Under the pieces are notes generated by a model. The model ran no database searches, was not told the DNA's origin, and saw only the letters and a list, made by a program, of their open reading frames with translations. A DNA stretch of 9,222 nucleotides from Candidatus Hermodarchaeota archaeon (GTDB lineage Archaea > Asgardarchaeota > Heimdallarchaeia > Hodarchaeales > Hodarchaeaceae). The position numbers and the translations under genes were made by a program. Every line of letters starts with the position of its first letter. Positions within the stretch are counted from its first letter, which is position 1. The stretch is taken from contig JBHLKY010000051.1 in the NCBI GenBank assembly GCA_048886185.1, forward strand, positions 1 to 9,222. Reading direction: 5' to 3'. Shown piece after piece: positions 315 to 9,222 of this stretch.

Positions 315-995
315 TTATATTAATGCGTCAAATAAGGTAACTGGACGACCTACAGGACTTCTCTTTTTTGGATATTCAACTGCAAATCCCCTCGTAATCA
401 ATCGTTGTAAACTGTCATAGATTGTGCTTCGTGGAGCACCTGCCAATTGAACTAACTCTGAACGGGTAAGGGGTCCGTACGCTTTTAAAATTTCTAATAG
501 AATGAGATCCAAATCATGGGTTAGTGGTAGCCTTTCTTGAGTCTTTGTAGAGTCTCTTTTAGTTGATGTTGAATCTAATAATAGATGTTTAAGAAGTAAA
601 GAATCATACCTAATCTCTAAAGAAGCAAGTCTCTCTAGAGATTCTTTCCGAATTGTGTTAATGATGTTAGAAATAGACGTTGTTTCAGGTAATCCAAGAA
701 GTTCCCGCAAATTTGTAATTTCATTATAAAATTGATTTAATTGAGAGAAATCCGAGGAGGAGAGATTTAAAGAGTTCCGAATCTCCTCTAATTTATTGTA
801 AAAACGATAATGTTGTTTAATTGGGTATATTGATGGGAGCTCTAATTCAGATTGCATTTTTTTGAGGAGTTGCCATATATCTCTCACTTCTTTTTCAGAA
901 ACAACTCCTTTTAGGCGTAGTAGTCTTCGTAGCTCACCTAGATTCTTGTTTCCAAATGAATCTTTTTCTGGGGAAAAACTGCTATTATAAGTCAA
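315..995 (-). CDS. TrmB-like winged helix-turn-helix transcriptional regulator with an N-terminal helical-repeat region
   Basis: C-terminal aa ~161-226 (LILLEILKAYGPLTRSELVQLAGAPRSTIYDSLQRLITRGFAVEYPKKRSPVGRPVTLF) fits the TrmB/ArsR-type wHTH pattern, including the PRSTIYD recognition helix and GRP wing. The start is TTG at 995. The frame is closed by TAA at 1038-1040 with no ATG in between, so the exact start is uncertain. Confidence 0.8.
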   Translation of the reverse strand: MTYNSSFSPEKDSFGNKNLGELRRLLRLKGVVSEKEVRDIWQLLKKMQSELELPSIYPIKQHYRFYNKLEEIRNSLNLSSSDFSQLNQFYNEITNLRELLGLPETTSISNIINTIRKESLERLASLEIRYDSLLLKHLLLDSTSTKRDSTKTQERLPLTHDLDLILLEILKAYGPLTRSELVQLAGAPRSTIYDSLQRLITRGFAVEYPKKRSPVGRPVTLFDALI

Positions 996-1025
996 ATCAA
1001 CATCAACTATAACATTAGATGGTTG

Positions 1026-1033
1026 TTTATATT
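1026..1033 (-). promoter_or_regulatory. Candidate TATA box (AATATAAA) for the wHTH regulator
   Basis: 31-38 nt upstream of TTG 995. The AT-rich background lowers specificity. Confidence 0.3.
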
Positions 1034-1119
1034 GAATTTAAGCATTCTCATTATATGAAGTGAATACTCATCCTTGTCTTTCTATAGAAAAAAATAGTTG
1101 AAAAATTAAGGAGTTCTGC

Positions 1120-1149
1120 AAAAATGACAGAATTCAAAAAAAAATGACA
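1120..1149 (+). repeat. Direct repeat AAAAATGACA x2, 20 bp apart
   Basis: Copies at 1120-1129 and 1140-1149. Confidence 0.7.
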
Positions 1150-1216
1150 CTTTCCAATCTATGGTATTCAATAAACACTTTCTTTATAAAAACTAAAGCA
1201 AGAGCGGAGTGATAAA

Positions 1217-1515
1217 TTCCGACAAAAATTTATTTACAAATTAAGTCGACATTACTTTATTTATCTCATTATAAATCTTTATTTATTAAATTTAAGTTCA
1301 TGAAAAACGTTATCATATCATAGGATAATAAAATTCTACAATAAAAGAAATATTTGACTAATATTATTTGAATAAAGTTTATTGTCGGATTCTATCATTG
1401 TATTTCGAATAGATCAACAAAATTACTTAAAACTCTTTTCTTTTAAATTCAAATCATAAATTCTCCGAAGATTTTTCCCTAAAACTCTTTTCTATATGTT
1501 TTTTATTTTGTCGGC
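1217..1515. promoter_or_regulatory. Three copies of a TTGTCGG motif, candidate transcription-factor sites
   Basis: CCGACAA at 1219-1225 (reverse orientation) and TTGTCGG at 1382-1388 and 1508-1514. Each is preceded by a T-rich flank in a very AT-rich spacer. The motif is seen directly; its function is inferred. Confidence 0.5.
1428..1493 (+). repeat. Exact 14-bp direct repeat TAAAACTCTTTTCT x2, 52 bp apart
   Basis: Copies at 1428-1441 and 1480-1493. Confidence 0.85.
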
Positions 1516-1732
1516 AACGTGATTGAACTAATCCTCAGAGGAAGACTACTTCGCCTGATATTGGAGTTTTCCATTTATCTGCTGATTAATTTTCCAGAAA
1601 GATTTTTAATCAATCTTTACTATGAAAAAATCGATAGCATGAAAACAGCTTATGTTGAAGTTAACATAATTTTGTGAGGATTTAAGCTAGTAATAGCAGG
1701 TTTTATTGAAAAGTCTGTTATTTTCTCTAATT

Positions 1733-1737
1733 GGTGA
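1733..1737 (+). promoter_or_regulatory. Archaeal-type Shine-Dalgarno GGTGA for the vWA gene
   Basis: GGTGA-ATTA-ATG (ATG at 1742). Confidence 0.65.
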
Positions 1738-1741
1738 ATTA

Positions 1742-4357
1742 ATGATACTTCCGAATCGAAGTTATATCTGGGAGGCAATTAAACAACATCCCCGGACGGT
1801 CGCTCTCATTATTACATCGATGATTACACTCCCTCTTTTTGCATTCACATCTCTACCTCCAGTCGAAGTTACTGAAGAAATTCTACAAAATACAGTGGAA
1901 GAAATTCTCATTCCAATTGAAGTCCCTGTAAATGTTTCAGTTGAGGTTCCTATCGAAATTAATCAAACTATTGAGATGGAGGTCAATAAAACAGTTGAAG
2001 TGGAGGTTAATATCACAAAAGAGGTGGTGGTCAATACAACAATAGGAGTTAATATTACAGAAGGAGGAAGTATTTTTCTGGAATCACAACCGTTACCACC
2101 ACTTATCGACATGGATATTGTCTTTTGTATCGATACCTCGGGTAGTATGGATGCGAATCGGATGCCACTAGCAAAAGCTGCTATTCGCAATACCTTAAAT
2201 TTGATCAATCAATCGTATTGGGCGAATCTATCAAATGATCAAGTGAGTTTAGTATCATTTGATTATATAAATGATGGAGATTGGACGACTGATGCTACAC
2301 TTCATGCTCCTTTAGATTATATAAGTAATCAGACACATTTATCACATCTTCTGAGTGAGGTGGAGTCTCTGAGTGGTCTCGGGGGAACGGACGCATGGGC
2401 TGGGTTGAACCTCTCATTAGATGCTTTATTCAACACACAGCGTAACTCCTCGGTTTTGAAAACCATCCTCTTTCTTACAGATGGAAAACATAATTCAGGT
2501 CCTTGGGGTACAGAGGTTAATGCGGGGAACTATGATGGCTTTATGCAACTCCCTTCAAATCGAGCACCTGCTTCAGCTAGTCCGATTGTAGTGGCTCGGA
2601 ACAATAATGTCAAGATTTACTCAATTGGGTTGTTTGAAGGAGCCATATACGATTTTGATGAGTTATTTTTAAGAAATATATCATTAGACGAGAATTATGG
2701 AACCGCTGGTGACTTCTTTGTAGGGAATGATACGTTATCTTTATCCGAGGGCTTTTTAACGGCCCGTGATCATGCATCTGGTTGGGTAACTGTGAATAGC
2801 TCGGAAGTGGTACTCCAAGACACTGGTACATTCCAAATGTTTACCTATAATGTTACAAATGATATTAGAAGGCTTAAATGGGACTTAAATTGGATTGATT
2901 CTTCTGTTGACTTTAATTTGATAATTATTGACCCCAACAAGACTTGTATCGATATTTCTACTAATATCACTAAAAATATTATTCCTATTACCCTCAAAAA
3001 ACCGAAATCTATCATTTTCGATTTCCCAATACTTGGTTTTTGGCAGTTTAATTTATCATGGCAAAATATCACAAGCCCAGGAGACCTTATTAAAGGAAGG
3101 CTCTCCTCTTACAATCCTCCAATCTTCATTGAATCTATAACGCAGTATAATTCATCAACTTTCAATACAACTTTGGAATCTTTTCCTTTAAGATCAATAT
3201 TAATGACTTCAAATACTACACAACCATTTCTGGATTCTATTTCATTTAGAGTAACTGATTTTAATGATAGTGTCTTTAGTAATCAATCAGTATATTTTTT
3301 GGTCAATGTAACGAATAAGAATCCATGGTTTACTTATAATAATATTACACCTTATGTGCTTGCAAATTTCTCTTCTTTCAACATAAGTCATACTTGGGAT
3401 CCTCCAGTTGTTAACACCTTAACAACGAACGAATCAATTTCATTTCTCTTCAATCTCACCTTTCTCGAACCTACTCTTCTTCAGGGTGATATCTTTTTTA
3501 AAGTAAACTGTTCTGAGGGTTATTACGACGCTGTAGCCCAATCAGTTACGTTGGATTATCGAATTACCACACAAAATGTGACTGTAGAAAGTCATCTTGA
3601 AAATCAAACAATAACTGTAGTTGAAAATCGTACGATTTCTGTCGTAGAAAATCAAACTATTATTACAGTGATAAGTTCTACTGGTTATGAGCTTAGAACC
3701 CAAATTACTCTTGTTCCTGGTACAACTAACGTTCTGAAATATACTTATGACCGTCAAATGTTTGATACTCTGAAATGGATAGGATTTTTTGCAACACTAG
3801 CTCTATTGATGTCTTTTTTGGTAGTCTATATTATGTCTCAAGCCCATCACTTGAAGAATCTCGCTAATAAATTTCGAGGACGATTTTTCCAAGACCAATC
3901 TGCCTTGGAATTGGCTTTACAGCGAGAAGGAATTACAATTGCTCCTGCAGACCTTAGTTCAGTTATGATGGAAGCTGATGATTTAGATCAGCTTGGAGAT
4001 AATATTTTTAATTTAACAGGAAAAAGACTATCTCCAGAAGAGTTGATTAGGTTAGCATCTGGCACCAATATGGATAAGATTGCCGATAGGATAAGTTATG
4101 TAACTGGTATGTCGAAAGATGAGATTATCTCTCATCTGAGAGATGCTCCAAGCATTGAAGTACTAATAGAACGATTAAATTTAGATAGCGAACGATTTCT
4201 AGATATAATCGCTCGTGATGAGGATGTAATAAACTTTCAAAAAAGAATTTTTAACTTAATGCCTCCCACAAAACGTGAAATATCTGGAATCCGAATATAT
4301 GATGATTTAAATGTTGATCAGTTTCGATCTCGTTTAAGAGAAAAGTTTTATTCTTAA
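1742..4357 (+). CDS. Predicted two-TM cell-surface protein: vWA domain with MIDAS, beta-rich domains, sequon-rich stalks, cytoplasmic helical tail
   Basis: MIDAS DTSGS lies at 2132-2146, followed by GGTD, LFLTDG and VKIYSIGL, all vWA hallmarks. Hydrophobic segments are at ~1799-1855 and ~3776-3835. I hand-count about 35 N-x-S/T sequons between them. ATG at 1742, preceded by GGTGA (1733-1737), is preferred over the track's in-frame TTG at 1706. Confidence 0.85.
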   Translation: MILPNRSYIWEAIKQHPRTVALIITSMITLPLFAFTSLPPVEVTEEILQNTVEEILIPIEVPVNVSVEVPIEINQTIEMEVNKTVEVEVNITKEVVVNTTIGVNITEGGSIFLESQPLPPLIDMDIVFCIDTSGSMDANRMPLAKAAIRNTLNLINQSYWANLSNDQVSLVSFDYINDGDWTTDATLHAPLDYISNQTHLSHLLSEVESLSGLGGTDAWAGLNLSLDALFNTQRNSSVLKTILFLTDGKHNSGPWGTEVNAGNYDGFMQLPSNRAPASASPIVVARNNNVKIYSIGLFEGAIYDFDELFLRNISLDENYGTAGDFFVGNDTLSLSEGFLTARDHASGWVTVNSSEVVLQDTGTFQMFTYNVTNDIRRLKWDLNWIDSSVDFNLIIIDPNKTCIDISTNITKNIIPITLKKPKSIIFDFPILGFWQFNLSWQNITSPGDLIKGRLSSYNPPIFIESITQYNSSTFNTTLESFPLRSILMTSNTTQPFLDSISFRVTDFNDSVFSNQSVYFLVNVTNKNPWFTYNNITPYVLANFSSFNISHTWDPPVVNTLTTNESISFLFNLTFLEPTLLQGDIFFKVNCSEGYYDAVAQSVTLDYRITTQNVTVESHLENQTITVVENRTISVVENQTIITVISSTGYELRTQITLVPGTTNVLKYTYDRQMFDTLKWIGFFATLALLMSFLVVYIMSQAHHLKNLANKFRGRFFQDQSALELALQREGITIAPADLSSVMMEADDLDQLGDNIFNLTGKRLSPEELIRLASGTNMDKIADRISYVTGMSKDEIISHLRDAPSIEVLIERLNLDSERFLDIIARDEDVINFQKRIFNLMPPTKREISGIRIYDDLNVDQFRSRLREKFYS
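3599..3670 (+). repeat. Three tandem 24-nt coding repeats (ENQTITVV / ENRTISVV / ENQTIITV)
   Basis: Units begin GAAAATC at 3599, 3623 and 3647. Each encodes an N-x-T sequon. Confidence 0.9.
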
Positions 4358-4385
4358 AGTAAGGATAAATGGCAGTTTATCAAAT

Positions 4386-5312
4386 TTAAAAACCATAGAT
4401 TCGGTCTTTTAGATATTCATAATGATTTTCTGTGACCTCCCGGATATTTGAGTCTTCAAAATCACGTATCATCTCTTCCGCTGTGGATTGGAAGTCTTTT
4501 GCGCACTTCATATCCATAAAAAGAGAATCAACTGTGGGAATTTGGTATTGGCTAGTTATTGTGATAAAGTGCTGATCTTCTCTAATTTTTCCATATACCT
4601 TTACTGAGTATTCATTAGCGACTCTTTCAAGCCATTTATTCATGAGGATTCTTTCAGAGACTTGATTGAATATAATCCCATTAAAAGTCAAATTAGGTTC
4701 TGCTATCGAATTATAATCTGTCACAAAAGCTAAAAGTATTTCTACCTCCCTTGATAACTCTTCATATTTCGCTTTGCTGCAATCGACCACTCCTACAATA
4801 ATATTAGAATTAAGTAATGCAGGAATAAATGAATTATTTCTCTCTCTTAGCTCGATTACTGGTAAATCAAAAAAGATATAACGAGTCCCCTCTTTTTCTA
4901 ATATCAGAGAAATATCCCAAAAGAACTTTGTTAAATCAAGGGTTTCTGTTTTTGATAAAAAACTAGTCATACCACGTGGAAAGAGAGGAATCATGAAAAA
5001 TAAAGGTTCATTTGTATCTTTATGAACAAATTTTGAGGGAAAACTACATTTTGACCAATCTGGTTCGGTTGATGATCTCATCTCTTCTATTAATGATGTT
5101 AACTCACCCATCCTCATTAAAATCTTGTCAGAAGCAAAAAATAACAAAGTAGAATACATATTTGAAAAATCAAATATACAAGCAACTGGGAAGTCAAATC
5201 GTTTTTCTTGATCTTCTTTTATCCAATTCTTCACAATTTCATAACTAATTGAAGCCATTACAGGAGTTTGACTAGCAGTTGTCCCAGTTGAAATAAATGA
5301 AACCCTGAACAT
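4386..5312 (-). CDS. MinD/ParA (SIMIBI)-like protein with degenerate Walker A, probable pseudo-ATPase
   Basis: Motif order matches MinD/ParA: an N-terminal beta-strand plus loop (VSFISTGTTASQT in place of xSGKGGxGKT), ACIFDFS (Walker A'), YIFFDLP (Walker B, cf. YIIIDTP), NIIVGVVD, GIIFNQV (cf. GVVLNRV) and GKIREDQ (cf. GxIPxD). Confidence 0.65.
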   Translation of the reverse strand: MFRVSFISTGTTASQTPVMASISYEIVKNWIKEDQEKRFDFPVACIFDFSNMYSTLLFFASDKILMRMGELTSLIEEMRSSTEPDWSKCSFPSKFVHKDTNEPLFFMIPLFPRGMTSFLSKTETLDLTKFFWDISLILEKEGTRYIFFDLPVIELRERNNSFIPALLNSNIIVGVVDCSKAKYEELSREVEILLAFVTDYNSIAEPNLTFNGIIFNQVSERILMNKWLERVANEYSVKVYGKIREDQHFITITSQYQIPTVDSLFMDMKCAKDFQSTAEEMIRDFEDSNIREVTENHYEYLKDRIYGF

Positions 5313-5473: not shown

Positions 5474-5602
5474 ATGGTCAAATGTCCAAAGTGTAAAAGT
5501 GAGTTAATATATATTGGTCCAGATTACGATGATGAGCAAGAGTTATGTTTTTGCTACTGGTGTGAAACTTGTCATAAACACTATTGGAACTATCCAAACT
5601 AA
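5474..5602 (+). CDS. 42-aa zinc-ribbon microprotein (not in ORF track)
   Basis: Manual translation from ATG 5474 to TAA 5600-5602 gives MVKCPKCKSELIYIGPDYDDEQELCFCYWCETCHKHYWNYPN. It has two CxxC knuckles (CPKC, CETC) and sits in an otherwise empty intergenic gap. Confidence 0.8.
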   Translation: MVKCPKCKSELIYIGPDYDDEQELCFCYWCETCHKHYWNYPN

Positions 5603-5703: not shown

Positions 5704-7410
5704 TTATGTCATTTTCTTTATAGCAGAGAGCATATTATCCACTTGGGTTTGATGAATCCAATTGGGAGGTGCTGCAAGTAATGCAAAACGAAAAACTTGT
5801 TCTGCTTCTCTAAAACGTCTTAGTTTGGTTAAAACAGATCCTAAATTGGCATAAGCATAAGGATCATCTGGATTTTGTTTTAAAACCTCTTGAAATGCTT
5901 CTTCTGCTTCTTTCAACCTATTTTTTTGAGTGAATAATTCTCCCAAACGCATCCAAGCTGCAATTTGGGTAGGATTGTATTTTAATAACGTTCTATATGC
6001 TTTTTCTGCCTTCCTAAAGCGATCCTGTCTTTGTAGGAGAACTCCTAGATTATATAAAGCTTCAGAATAGGTGGGATCATATCTCAATGAGTTTCTATAT
6101 GCCCCTTCAGCTTCAATTATCCGTCCTTTTCTTTCGAGTAGAATGCCCAGTTTATCCCAAGCCTTGATATGGTTTGGTTTTAATTGGATTGATGTGTGAT
6201 AAGCTTGTTCTGCTTCCATCAGATGTCCTTTTTCAGACAGAAGATTCCCCAAGTTATACCATGTACTAGCTTGATTGGGTTCAAATTTTAGGGAAGTACG
6301 ATAAGCATTTTCTGCTTCTATTAAATTTCCCCATTTATGTAGCAAACCTCCTAAATTGTTCCAAGCTTTGGCATGAAAAGGATCATTCTTTAATGCTTTT
6401 TGATAGGCTATCTCTGCTTCAGTTAAGCGATTTTGATTTTCAAGAGATATTCCAAGGTTATACCAAGCATCTACATTATTCTGGTTATTTTCTAAGATGG
6501 TTTGACAAGCTTTCTCTGCCTCAATATACTGTTTTTGCTCATTTAATACTCTACTCAGATTGATCCATGTGGCAATTTGAGAGGAGTCATGTTGTAAAGA
6601 TGTTTGATAAGCCTCTTTCGCGTCGTTGAGTCGCCCCTCCTCCTTTAATAAGTCTCCCAGTTTTGACCATGCTTGAATGTTTTTTGGTTCGAGCTTAATC
6701 GCTATTTGATAGCCTTCCATTTGTCCTTGATCCATTAATAGATCTTTCAGGCGAATTAAAGCATTTTTGTTCTTTGGTTGATACTTTAATACCATTTTAT
6801 AATCTTTTTCAGCTTCAAGAAGCTTTCCCTGCTTCTCAAGTAAAATTCCTAGGTTATACCAGCTCTTTACATTTTTTGGATTGGAATCTAAAGCTAATCG
6901 AAAAGCGTCCTCTGCTTCAGTTATACGATTCTGTTTAGTTAACAAAACTCCCAGATTTGTCAAAACTGAGGAGTGTTTACGATCATGTAATAAAGCTGAC
7001 CAAAATTCCTCTTCTGCTTCATTAATACGATTTTGCCGATATAATAGTTTTCCAAGATTATTTCGTGCATTAGTATTACTAGGTTCATAACTAATGGCTT
7101 TTCTTAAAGATCTCTCTGCTTCAATGAGTTTTTCTTGTTTGTATAGACAAATCCCTAGGTGAAACCAAGCTTGCGCTAATGCAGAATTATGCCTCAGAGC
7201 AGTTCGATAAGCCTCTTCTGCATCTGATAACAATCCTTTTTTATATAAGCAGATTCCTAAATGGAACCAAGTATTAGCATGATTAACCTCGTATTTCAGA
7301 GCTGTTCGATAGGCCTCCTCTGCTTCAGTCAAACGACCCTGTTTAAGATGAAAAGTTCCTCTTTCACACCACCTATCGGCTTCAAAAGGTTCATCTTGAA
7401 GTAAGTTCAT
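5704..7410 (-). CDS. Stand-alone tetratricopeptide repeat protein (16 TPRs plus capping helix)
   Basis: 16 consecutive repeats start at aa 11, with consensus AWxNLGxLLxxxGRLxEAExAYxxALxxxPxx. All are 34 aa except repeat 7 (30 aa). There is no catalytic domain. Confidence 0.93.
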   Translation of the reverse strand: MNLLQDEPFEADRWCERGTFHLKQGRLTEAEEAYRTALKYEVNHANTWFHLGICLYKKGLLSDAEEAYRTALRHNSALAQAWFHLGICLYKQEKLIEAERSLRKAISYEPSNTNARNNLGKLLYRQNRINEAEEEFWSALLHDRKHSSVLTNLGVLLTKQNRITEAEDAFRLALDSNPKNVKSWYNLGILLEKQGKLLEAEKDYKMVLKYQPKNKNALIRLKDLLMDQGQMEGYQIAIKLEPKNIQAWSKLGDLLKEEGRLNDAKEAYQTSLQHDSSQIATWINLSRVLNEQKQYIEAEKACQTILENNQNNVDAWYNLGISLENQNRLTEAEIAYQKALKNDPFHAKAWNNLGGLLHKWGNLIEAENAYRTSLKFEPNQASTWYNLGNLLSEKGHLMEAEQAYHTSIQLKPNHIKAWDKLGILLERKGRIIEAEGAYRNSLRYDPTYSEALYNLGVLLQRQDRFRKAEKAYRTLLKYNPTQIAAWMRLGELFTQKNRLKEAEEAFQEVLKQNPDDPYAYANLGSVLTKLRRFREAEQVFRFALLAAPPNWIHQTQVDNMLSAIKKMT

Positions 7411-7588: not shown

Positions 7589-7885
7589 ATGACATGGAAA
7601 CATACACTAGGAAAACCTGGTAATACTTATGTCATAACTAAACATTGGGTGAAGAAGAACATCCCAAAATCAAAAAGATTACCGAAGTTATTCTCCAAAG
7701 AAGTTTGTCCCGATTATATCTATAATATTGGGTTACATTATCTCCCTGATAATCCCAAAATTCCTCAAGAAATATGGATATGCCTGAAGACGGGAGTTCT
7801 TTTCACAAAAACTGATATTTTAATGTGGTTAAAGGAATCACGATCAAAACTTGAAAACAGCATAGTAAACAAAACAATGGAATGA
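7589..7885 (+). CDS. Small basic hypothetical protein (98 aa)
   Basis: ATG-started ORF that fills the gap between two opposite-strand genes without overlap. It is Lys/Trp-rich, with a TATA-like box 26 nt upstream. I recognise no family. Confidence 0.6.
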   Translation: MTWKHTLGKPGNTYVITKHWVKKNIPKSKRLPKLFSKEVCPDYIYNIGLHYLPDNPKIPQEIWICLKTGVLFTKTDILMWLKESRSKLENSIVNKTME

Positions 7886-7905: not shown

Positions 7906-8679
7906 CTAGTGAGGCTTTAAATTAACTTTTAATGGTTTGGTATTTTTAACATTCTCGTAAAGATCAATTATTTTTTTCACTTCTTCATCTATTCCAGATA
8001 CTTCAAATATTGTTGCGCCGGCTCCATCGTATACCCCCCCTGCCCCTATTGGATAGATTTCAACGTTTGCCAAAGCCTCCATTGCCTCAATTTCTGAAAA
8101 TACCTCCCCACCAACCATGGGGAAAAGGCCAACTGGCATTCCACGAACGTAGTCAATCGATTGTTGTCCCCCAAGGTCTGGGACAATCTCTGTTACCGAG
8201 TATGGAACCATCTTTCCAATGGATATCGGTATTATGATTTGAATCCCTCGTGAAATAGCAATTGCATAAACAGAGCCAATTGTACCTCCAGCTGGGTGTG
8301 CACATAAAACTCCAGCAATCCAATCGGGTCCCAATGCGTTACCTCCTTTGATGATCACATCAGCTTTTTCAATCGATTGTTGGATAGGTTCAAATTTCGG
8401 TTTTCCGTTGTAAAAGGCTACTTCAGGGGTTCGTGTTTCAGAATTACTTACCCACAACGAACCTTCCACTATCCCTGCGACATAATTGTCAATATTAATT
8501 TGGAAATCAACATTATTTGTGAATTCTAGCATCTCACGAAGAATAAAAGCATTTGTTAAGCCTCGACCAATAGCTATCACACCATCGCTTAAATTCTCTT
8601 TCATAACTGGATGATTGAGGATTGCTTTAGCAATGAATGCACGACTTTCCCACGTATTGAATACTAGTTGACATCTCAT
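7906..8679 (-). CDS. Uncharacterised protein, probable NagB/RpiA/CoA-transferase-like fold
   Basis: VIAIGRGLT (cf. RpiA GLGTGST), ADVIIKGGNAL (cf. RpiA DVAIDGADEV), GGTIG and a Gly-rich GAGGVYDGAG. A GAGGTG SD lies at 8688-8693. The gene is confident; the fold assignment is inferred from motifs. Confidence 0.75.
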   Translation of the reverse strand: MRCQLVFNTWESRAFIAKAILNHPVMKENLSDGVIAIGRGLTNAFILREMLEFTNNVDFQINIDNYVAGIVEGSLWVSNSETRTPEVAFYNGKPKFEPIQQSIEKADVIIKGGNALGPDWIAGVLCAHPAGGTIGSVYAIAISRGIQIIIPISIGKMVPYSVTEIVPDLGGQQSIDYVRGMPVGLFPMVGGEVFSEIEAMEALANVEIYPIGAGGVYDGAGATIFEVSGIDEEVKKIIDLYENVKNTKPLKVNLKPH

Positions 8680-8833: not shown

Positions 8834-9222
8834 TCATGTATTTGAAACGCTTTTTATCTGCCTTAATTCTTCAAGTGGCTTTTCTAAGACGTATTGTCGA
8901 TCAATTTTCCAATAATGGGTAGTAAAATCAAAGTTTTCTGGATAAAACCAGTAGATTGTTGATGCATTGACTGATGTATCTAATGTATAAGCGTTAAACG
9001 ACTGGAAGAGCTTCCAAATTGAAAAGGCTAGTTGATGTTCTTGAAAACTGGGAAGAGCACCACCCCATAATAAGAAGCCATTATTTTGGAGTATATCCAT
9101 ACCAAATCGAAAAGGAGGGGGAGATTCTGTAATAAGATTGAAGAAGCGATTAGTCGTCTTTTTATCCGAAGTAGGAACCCAAAATACTCGAGTATTAACT
9201 AAATTGAATAGAATTCGATCAA
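8834..9222 (-). CDS. 3' part of a hypothetical protein truncated by the window edge
   Basis: The frame of the 88-aa track ORF stays open upstream of ATG 9100 to the window end (DRILFNLVNTRVFWVPTSDKKTTNRFFNLITESPPPFRFG-MDIL...). The true start probably lies outside the window. The stop is TGA at 8834-8836. Confidence 0.7.
   Translation of the reverse strand, partial: DRILFNLVNTRVFWVPTSDKKTTNRFFNLITESPPPFRFGMDILQNNGFLLWGGALPSFQEHQLAFSIWKLFQSFNAYTLDTSVNASTIYWFYPENFDFTTHYWKIDRQYVLEKPLEELRQIKSVSNT

Follow-up and report, generated by a model that had tools for sequence, protein, structure and literature searches.

A vWA receptor-like protein and a degenerate MinD-fold protein as a candidate two-gene module of Asgard archaea

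Introduction

Proteins of the MinD/ParA fold normally cycle between a monomer and an ATP-sandwich dimer, and their partners bind either state. Eukaryotic surface proteins such as ANTXR1/2 (TEM8/CMG2), integrin β and apicomplexan TRAP carry an extracellular von Willebrand factor A (vWA) head with a metal-ion-dependent adhesion site (MIDAS), one or more further extracellular domains, a single transmembrane (TM) helix and a cytoplasmic tail that recruits partners. Hodarchaeales are among the archaea that have been discussed as close relatives of eukaryotes. Here we describe a Hodarchaeales locus in which a gene for a vWA receptor-like membrane glycoprotein converges on a gene for a degenerate protein of the MinD/ParA fold, which we call pseudo-MinD. 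The locus lies on contig JBHLKY010000051.1 of Candidatus Hermodarchaeota archaeon (assembly GCA_048886185.1), which was analysed over its whole length of 9,222 nucleotides (the window). Two described cases bear on a MinD-fold protein of this kind: monomeric FlhG can bind FliM whatever its nucleotide state (PMC11407121), and catalytically disrupted ParA homologues beside type VII secretion system (T7SS) loci have been proposed to localise that machine (bioRxiv 10.64898/2026.10.19.760177).

We find that the vWA and pseudo-MinD genes stay together while their surroundings change, that the cytoplasmic tail of the vWA protein and pseudo-MinD have congruent trees, and that the extracellular head of the vWA protein has a different history. 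On balance, we favour a two-gene receptor/adaptor module specific to Asgard archaea. A preliminary description of this stretch had joined both genes to a divergent winged helix-turn-helix (wHTH) regulator in a three-part unit for adhesion or contact sensing; its coordinates for all three genes hold, and the regulator proves to be an unrelated neighbour outside the module. A literature search returned no description of a pair of vWA and MinD-like proteins, and nothing relevant on Hodarchaeales with von Willebrand or on Asgard with integrin or vWA.

Results

Conservation of the gene pair

The window belongs to a genome of 4.84 Mb that is 96% complete (G+C ~33%), and close homologues of its proteins are labelled Hodarchaeales, Heimdallarchaeota or Promethearchaeota in the source databases. 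For the neighbourhood comparison, 10-15 kb were fetched around each genomic match and all open reading frames (ORFs) were clustered; all Hodarchaeales loci come from one GTDB genus. In every intact Hodarchaeales locus (11 of 11), the vWA and pseudo-MinD genes lie side by side and converge, with a stop-to-stop distance of -4 to +64 bp. The outer flanks fall into at least five unrelated contexts, which contain aldehyde:ferredoxin oxidoreductase (AFOR), an amidohydrolase, an AMP-binding enzyme, an SHMT-like protein, a histidine kinase together with ThiS, tetratricopeptide repeat (TPR) proteins or unknowns, and no neighbour family besides pseudo-MinD is common to all 11 loci. The two apparent exceptions, both single-contig relatives classed as complete that are in fact scaffolds with errors at this locus, are assembly artefacts: in G010 a gap of 100 Ns (L020:7678-7777) cuts the MinD-like gene after codon 193, and in G015 (L017, L026) codons 1-100 of this gene lie ~740 kb from codons 50-308.

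The two genes also co-occur. A profile search with the tail recovers it in exactly those genomes of the genus that hold the MinD-like gene (n = 11, including the window genome), the exception being the gap-broken G010. The searches recovered neither gene from ten further members of the genus, whose genomes are 71-95% complete, so that absence from them is not proof. Both genes are thus found, or both not found, in 21 of the 22 genus genomes, and the one remaining case is the assembly gap of G010.

Furthermore, the pair extends to a second Asgard lineage. Genes of the type of protein P0068, here called Wukong-type, are present in two genomes from a different Asgard family, f33, and their proteins are labelled Wukongarchaeota and Hodarchaeota at NCBI. 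On a 3.1-kb contig of G398, a MinD-like gene 25-31% identical to the Hodarchaeales genes is convergent, across a gap of 103 bp, with an ORF at the contig edge. At its end, this ORF has the ectodomain motif SGEGYFDAV, shared with the window protein (SEGYYDAV there), then a single TM helix and a tail that can be aligned over its full length with the window tail at 21% identity. The full-length relatives P0113 and P0114 of this ORF carry PF00092, and their alignment with the window protein extends from the MIDAS head through the tail, with 28% identity. An IS605 OrfB/TnpB-type gene (PF12323, PF01385) adjoins the Wukong-type pair (L027:2076-2834, plus strand).

The preliminary description had judged the evidence for linkage to be weak. 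For vWA and pseudo-MinD, the 11 conserved loci, the second Asgard lineage, the co-occurrence and the congruent trees described below make the link far better supported than that.

The vWA receptor-like protein

Residues of the vWA protein are counted here from TTG 1706, the first codon of the ORF (1706-4357). ATG 1742 is probably the real start, because the sequence GGTGA at 1733-1737, five bases before it, is conserved in an upstream alignment of three genomes; with this start the spacer to the regulator comes to ~745 bp, the length given in the preliminary description. The protein has exactly two hydrophobic segments, at aa 30-51 and aa 688-713. Between them lie 35 N-x-S/T sequons, compared with 11.1 ± 2.8 in composition-preserving shuffles (maximum 21 in 2000 shuffles), and the predicted cytoplasmic parts hold just 2. 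From the two hydrophobic segments and the distribution of sequons, we predict a short N-terminus inside the cell, a glycosylated ectodomain outside and a tail of ~170 residues inside.

The head matches PF00092 (aa 137-330, E 3.6e-13, 50.6 bits versus a cut-off of 23.8), and its MIDAS residues are all intact, with D143-T-S145-G-S147, T228 (in GGTD) and D259 (in LTDG). Indeed, the DxSxS motif, the downstream T and the aspartate of (T)DG are kept in all 11 orthologues and in Wukong-type P0113. Two stalk-like stretches with an 8-residue period (VEVxVNxT and ENQTITVV) bracket the ectodomain, at ~1880-2070 and ~3530-3680 (aa ~60-120 and ~610-660). For the mid-ectodomain, the ESM Atlas yields weak leads only (0.78-0.84; Ig_VWA7/CARDB at 0.78), and the full protein has no PDB sequence match at E <= 0.01.

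A large cytoplasmic tail had been predicted at 3836-4354, close to the limits that we obtain (aa 714-883). Its conserved elements are a basic juxtamembrane FRxRxFxD, repeats of the LTGKxLSxEELIRxxSG type and a C-terminal FRSRLR. The AlphaFold2 (AF2) model of the tail is moderately confident and all-alpha, with a predicted local distance difference test (pLDDT) score of 69 overall and ~70-87 through the helical core. Pfam gave sub-threshold noise only at E <= 1, Foldseek gave no PDB fold match at E <= 0.001, and the NPxY motif is absent from the tail. Among 5.8 billion proteins, the tail was found in 22 vWA proteins only, and the source labels, where given, are Asgard-type.

Pseudo-MinD

By sequence, pseudo-MinD matches no Pfam or NCBIfam model at E <= 0.01 (PF01656, PF13614, PF10609 and the NCBIfam MinD models are all unmatched), and comparison with the PDB, by phmmer with the single sequence and by a search with a 40-sequence profile, gave nothing meaningful. 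The AF2 model built on the 40-sequence alignment, with a pLDDT of 90.7 and a predicted TM-score (pTM) of 0.91, identifies the 308-residue protein as MinD-like in its predicted fold. Its best Foldseek match is MinD 3r9i (E 1.9e-12, TMt 0.76), and the further matches are MinD of Aquifex, Archaeoglobus and Pyrococcus, FlhG, Soj, NifH and BcsQ (E 1.9e-12 to 1e-8, TMt 0.72-0.78). In agreement with this, ESM Atlas neighbours of the protein carry CbiA/AAA_31/ParA, and an hhalign comparison of its family with the canonical MinD/ParA proteins of the same genome gives 92% probability (E 6.7e-7) over aa 119-250, a region that includes the Walker B strand; the N-terminal P-loop region stays unaligned.

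The genome holds at least ten canonical CbiA/MinD/ParA genes, and in the nine whose motif region was read, Walker A is GKGGxGK[ST] or KGGxGKT. In pseudo-MinD, the deviant Walker A consensus KGGxGK[ST] is replaced by STGTTASQT, in which both lysines are gone. This loop sits between the strand at aa 2-8 and the helix at aa 12-33 of the AF2 model, and by position G10 occupies the site of the signature lysine and Q15 that of the Walker A lysine, a mapping that relies on secondary structure and on the intermediate P0068. Besides the Walker B aspartate, a switch-I-like FDFS is retained, as is a GKIREDQ segment, which we take to resemble the G-x-IPED of MinD. The C-terminal helix (aa 296-304) is accompanied by the conserved residues Q297, L301 and I305. 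The earlier call of a P-loop-dead MinD-like protein 28 bp from the vWA stop is therefore borne out, by structure rather than by sequence.

Since the Walker A lysine is replaced by glutamine and the signature lysine by glycine, pseudo-MinD is most likely unable to run an ATP-driven dimer cycle, and it may have lost nucleotide binding. Because it departs from the Walker A consensus and from all curated sequence models despite its fold, we class it as a degenerate offshoot of MinD/ParA and not as a MinD. A word-indexed search of 5.8 billion proteins recovered 67 members of the family, and all source labels among them are of Asgard type. An exhaustive profile search of 1.84 billion representatives gave ten matches, which comprise family members and fragments, the divergent full-length P0068 and one spurious low-complexity protein of 1307 aa. 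The P-loop of Wukong-type P0068, HGGAGEGQTT, keeps the MinD-type glycines, and glutamine already replaces the catalytic lysine.

A Get3-like role in tail-anchor targeting was considered and dropped: the top fold matches are to MinD and not to Get3, 170 residues follow the second TM helix of the vWA protein, and the P-loop is degenerate.

Histories of head, tail and partner

Across 55 locus pairs, pairwise identities of the tail and of the MinD-like protein are correlated at r = 0.98, with a mean difference of 2.6 points, compared with r = 0.25 for the vWA domain and the MinD-like protein. Elongation factor 2 (EF-2) served as a marker of vertical descent in nine of the genomes. The EF-2 ORFs (811-840 aa; L061-L079, ten genus genomes) match the NCBIfam model aEF-2 TIGR00490 in two stretches, 6-215 and 236-717, below the curated cut-off, and are 83-97% identical among genomes with the pair. 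EF-2 correlates with the MinD-like protein at r = 0.93 and with the tail at r = 0.90, and the partial correlation of tail and MinD-like protein after removal of EF-2 is 0.89. The head is uncoupled from the tail, the MinD-like protein and EF-2 (r = 0.22-0.32).

The trees tell the same story. Three groups, {L021, L022, L024}, {L018, L019} and {window, L015, L016, L017}, are common to the tail and MinD-like trees, whereas the head alignment rejects the first of these groups with an approximately unbiased (AU) test p of 5e-86 and the last with an AU p of 1e-40. Instead, the head tree unites L016 and L021 at 100/100 support, a grouping that is rejected by the tail data (p 1e-60) and by the MinD-like data (3e-53). 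Sliding-window identity places the exchanged part at ~aa 140-340, reaching up to ~aa 480 in L021. As the head tree rejects clades common to the tail and MinD-like trees, heads appear to be exchanged like cassettes, and the alignments point to a constant inner module, formed by the tail and pseudo-MinD, that carries an exchangeable ligand-binding head.

Features of the window, the regulator and other neighbours

The coordinates of the features discussed are collected in Table 1.

Table 1. Genes and predicted features at the vWA/pseudo-MinD locus (positions in the window)
Feature	Coordinates	Strand	Remarks
wHTH regulator, 226 aa	315..995	-	Helical N-terminus, C-terminal TrmB/Lrs14-type winged helix; neighbour, not a module member
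Composite AT-rich spacer	996..1741	.	Left part to ~1241 corresponds to the regulator upstream region in G003; right part, ~1282-1741, to the conserved vWA upstream region
vWA receptor-like membrane glycoprotein	1742..4357	+	871 aa from ATG 1742; 883 aa from TTG 1706 (ORF 1706-4357)
N-terminal hydrophobic segment, aa 30-51, signal anchor or signal peptide	1793..1858	+	Kyte-Doolittle peak 2.04; preceded by KQHPR; kept in orthologues
Predicted extracellular vWA head with intact MIDAS	2114..2695	+	PF00092, PF13519; cassette-like recombining part ~aa 140-340
Sequon-rich extracellular region, aa 346-686	2741..3763	+	Probably beta-rich; includes the conserved SEGYYDAV motif; no Pfam match
Transmembrane helix 2, aa 688-713	3767..3844	+	Kyte-Doolittle peak 2.38; helix in the AF2 tail model
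Predicted all-alpha cytoplasmic tail, aa 714-883	3845..4354	+	Alignment including the Wukong-type tail; AF2 model
Gap between convergent stop codons	4358..4385	.	28 bp
Pseudo-MinD, MinD/ParA-fold protein (predicted), 308 aa	4386..5312	-	No Pfam model for its family
Retained Walker B aspartate D149 (YIFFDLP)	4866..4868	-	Invariant in the 40-sequence alignment; paired by hhalign with the canonical Walker B strand
Degenerate Walker A loop, aa 8-16, STGTTASQT	5265..5291	-	S8, G10, Q15 and T16 invariant in 40 sequences

The wHTH domain of the regulator (aa 165-220) matches PF01978 TrmB at 29.7 bits versus a cut-off of 25.6, and PF09339 as well. By its architecture, the protein is not a TrmB-family member, which would have an N-terminal TrmB wHTH followed by a sugar-binding domain: only wHTH models match, at the C-terminal aa 169-208, and the NCBIfam TrmB equivalog scores 16.1 bits versus a cut-off of 600. 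The regulator family is multi-copy: the window genome gives 8 matches, G010 gives 9. G009 and G013, from which the pair was not recovered, carry full-length homologues with 56-64% identity. G004 and G008 have theirs on contigs other than that of the pair, and in G010 the closest homologue lies between the 257-aa and 98-aa genes. In G003, the nearest relative of the window, a 361-aa TPR gene stands between the regulator and the vWA gene, and in G008 and G015 the same TPR gene is upstream of the vWA gene with no regulator nearby.

According to blastn comparisons with G003, G015 and G010, the two pieces of the window spacer are ~1.2 kb apart in G003, with the TPR gene between them. Around ~1241-1282, the window is without a ~1.2-kb segment (L015:2693-3927) that holds a TPR gene divergent from vWA in G003, G008 and G015, either because its own lineage lost it by deletion or because the relatives gained it by insertion. 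The window spacer thus consists of two outer intergenic pieces joined where the TPR gene is missing, and it is because this gene is missing that the regulator faces the vWA gene in the window. The spacer had also been described as motif-rich, and this holds to a modest degree: TTGTCGG occurs 3 times versus 0.52 expected, a number reached in 4 of 200 shuffles. The vWA upstream region, whose alignment in three genomes has 82% column identity, contains two direct TTTTGTCGG copies (core TTGTCGG at 1382-1388 and 1508-1514) and an invariant 31-bp block (1577-1607). Both direct copies and the block are conserved in G015, where no regulator is nearby.

Two further candidates for membership were dropped. 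TPR genes flank the pair in a minority of loci only and do not qualify as a third member. A 42-aa zinc-ribbon ORF (CPxC...CxxC; 5474-5602, plus strand), divergent from pseudo-MinD, is restricted to the closest relatives: by tblastn it is found beside the 5' end of the MinD-like gene in G003, G010 and G015 only (71-86% identical), and not in seven more distant loci. Farther out, 5704-7410 (minus strand) encodes a 568-aa protein made nearly entirely of TPR repeats, whose homologues stand beside the pair in a minority of loci in a grouping that is repeat-driven. The ORFs at 7906-8679 (minus strand, 257 aa), 7589-7885 (plus strand, 98 aa) and 8834-9220 (minus strand, at least 128 aa) belong to no Pfam or NCBIfam family, and their homologues, 66-81% identical, are syntenic only in G010 or partly in G003. 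Rfam gave no family within the window.

Discussion

We propose that the first gene encodes a surface receptor or adhesin, in which an N-terminal membrane or signal segment would be followed by an ectodomain that bears many N-glycans and presents a MIDAS-competent vWA head on stalks rich in sequons, then by one TM helix and a conserved helical tail of ~170 residues. The second gene, convergent with it and with a near-touching 3' end, would encode a cytoplasmic protein of the MinD/ParA fold that docks on the receptor tail without the need for nucleotide, with the conserved basic FRxRxF and FRSRLR helices as candidate docking elements. Pseudo-MinD could then serve as a fixed adaptor by which the receptor is clustered, positioned or anchored in the membrane, and exchange of the extracellular head between lineages may alter ligand specificity. 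The nucleotide-independent adaptor role is proposed by analogy with FlhG-FliM and with the ParA homologues adjacent to T7SS loci; on the same analogy the tail and pseudo-MinD may bind each other physically, and the module may serve in adhesion or positioning. We regard a two-gene receptor/adaptor module specific to Asgard archaea as somewhat the more probable account of the locus, and no rival explains the full set of observations as well.

Several points weigh against this interpretation. All Hodarchaeales loci come from a single genus, and convergent genes are not co-transcribed. Because both the tail and the MinD-like protein track EF-2, most of the correlation between them is shared vertical ancestry, and genes that are physically linked would in any case have been transferred together. 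The clades tested were chosen after the identity tables had been seen and the identity pairs are not independent, although the effect sizes are very large. Finally, the invariant residues S8, G10, Q15, T16, D48 and D149 could mean that the former nucleotide pocket still binds some ligand.

The three-part unit, in which the vWA protein senses contact, pseudo-MinD adapts the signal and the divergent wHTH regulator provides the transcriptional output, is in our view highly improbable. It accords with the position of the regulator ~0.7-2 kb upstream of vWA in the window and in G003, and with one inverted TTGTCGG copy in the regulator-proximal part of the spacer. However, the regulator is multi-copy, and its homologues turn up in G009 and G013 although the pair was not recovered there, away from the contig of the pair in G004 and G008, and between other genes in G010; the TPR gene intervenes in G003, and the direct TTTTGTCGG copies are kept upstream of vWA in G015 with no regulator nearby. 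The neighbourhood and phyletic data largely refute such a unit. What stands of the original proposal is the pair of vWA receptor and pseudo-MinD, conserved in 11 of 11 loci and co-occurring; the regulator, with its unrelated neighbourhoods and its presence in genomes where the pair was not found, falls away, and contact sensing with transcriptional output finds no support. The two genes might also be neighbours by descent only, with no functional link, if no breakpoint happened to fall in the gap of <65 bp. Sampling from one genus, convergent genes with no operon and the small target that a very short gap offers to breakpoints would all be expected then, but the pair has come through repeated rearrangement of both outer flanks, it is still present at 21-31% identity in a different Asgard family, the genes are found or not found together in all genus genomes except the one with an assembly gap, and both families are narrow, with Asgard labels only (67 and 22 of 5.8 billion proteins; 10 matches among 1.84 billion representatives). 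We consider descent alone improbable.

Similarly improbable is a coupling at the RNA level, in which overlapping 3' ends of the near-abutting genes would let transcription of one gene damp the other and the proteins need not touch. The gaps of -4 to +64 bp in Hodarchaeales and the lack of a strong T-tract in the 28-bp gap of the window would suit it, yet the Wukong-type gap measures 103 bp, and RNA coupling leaves unexplained why this pair persists and why the tail is congruent with the MinD-like protein when the head of the same gene is not. Doubtful, though deserving of more weight, is a conflict or recognition system, in which the fast-changing head would sense viruses or other cells or be targeted by them (in surface exclusion, or in discrimination of kin or partners) and pseudo-MinD would be a switch that relays to a further effector. 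The head indeed behaves as an exchanged cassette around a constant inside, the pair is patchy in the genus (11 of 22 genomes), the IS605 OrfB/TnpB gene adjoins the Wukong-type pair, and ParA-clade proteins have been repeatedly recruited to immunity (bioRxiv 10.64898/2026.10.19.760177). PADLOC, however, matches neither protein, no effector domain is present in the pair or in any conserved neighbour, the flanking genes are ordinary metabolic genes, and the correlation of tail and MinD-like protein with EF-2 (r = 0.90-0.93) fits vertical descent with losses.

The receptor/adaptor module bears on the question of how Hodarchaeales cells attach to partners. It supplies a testable pair of receptor and adaptor, a branch of pseudo-ATPases within the MinD/ParA fold that had not been modelled before (67 proteins, no Pfam model), and a cytoplasmic tail domain with no Pfam or PDB match. 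It also provides a clear case of domain-level mosaicism, in which lineages exchange the ligand-binding head but inherit the inner tail jointly with its partner. In its furthest form, which we offer as a speculative and rather unlikely extension, the pair would give Hodarchaeales and Wukong-type Asgard archaea a self-contained adhesion-receptor system with integrin/ANTXR-like logic built from unrelated parts: a cassette-swapped MIDAS head would set the specificity for a partner cell or matrix, and a new helical tail would pass contact to a nucleotide-blind MinD-fold adaptor, which would fix the receptor at defined membrane sites or link it to the cytoskeleton. If true, the MinD fold would have been put to a new use here, and archaea would have an outside-in link of a new kind.

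BatA/BatB with MoxR and the TPR protein BatC, and MoxR-vWA systems, share with it a membrane vWA protein near a protein of NTPase fold, and in the window also near TPR proteins. Unlike in these systems, the partner is MinD/ParA-like and not an AAA+ MoxR, the TPR neighbours are not conserved, and the head is predicted to be extracellular and glycosylated; among the neighbours scanned against Pfam (metabolic enzymes, histidine kinase, ThiS, TPR), there was no MoxR or DUF58. With ANTXR, integrin β and TRAP, the vWA receptor has its layout in common and that only. No evidence of specific homology to ANTXR or integrin β was seen beyond the ubiquitous vWA domain, as judged by matches to Pfam vWA families only, no PDB sequence match, no NPxY and an unmatched tail fold, and the partner here is pseudo-MinD and not talin, kindlin or actin.

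By fold, pseudo-MinD goes with the MinD/ParA proteins (MinD, Soj, FlhG, BcsQ), with which it shares the predicted fold, the Walker B aspartate and a profile-profile match to the canonical members of its own genome. It differs from them in its STGTTASQT loop (HGGAGEGQTT in the Wukong type), in having no curated sequence match and Asgard-type labels only, and in its constant partner, a vWA membrane protein and not MinC, MinE or ParB. As in FlhG-FliM, BcsQ of cellulose secretion, TadZ/CpaE and the T7SS-adjacent ParA homologues, a protein of the MinD/ParA fold appears to be tied to membrane-embedded cargo; TadZ and BcsQ are known parallels of this kind, and BcsQ is also among the Foldseek matches of our model. 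The present case differs in that the cargo would be one bitopic vWA glycoprotein, that the two genes converge, and that degeneracy marks the whole family and not only occasional members. Together, these likenesses and differences place the module within a known theme, that of MinD-fold adaptors of envelope components.

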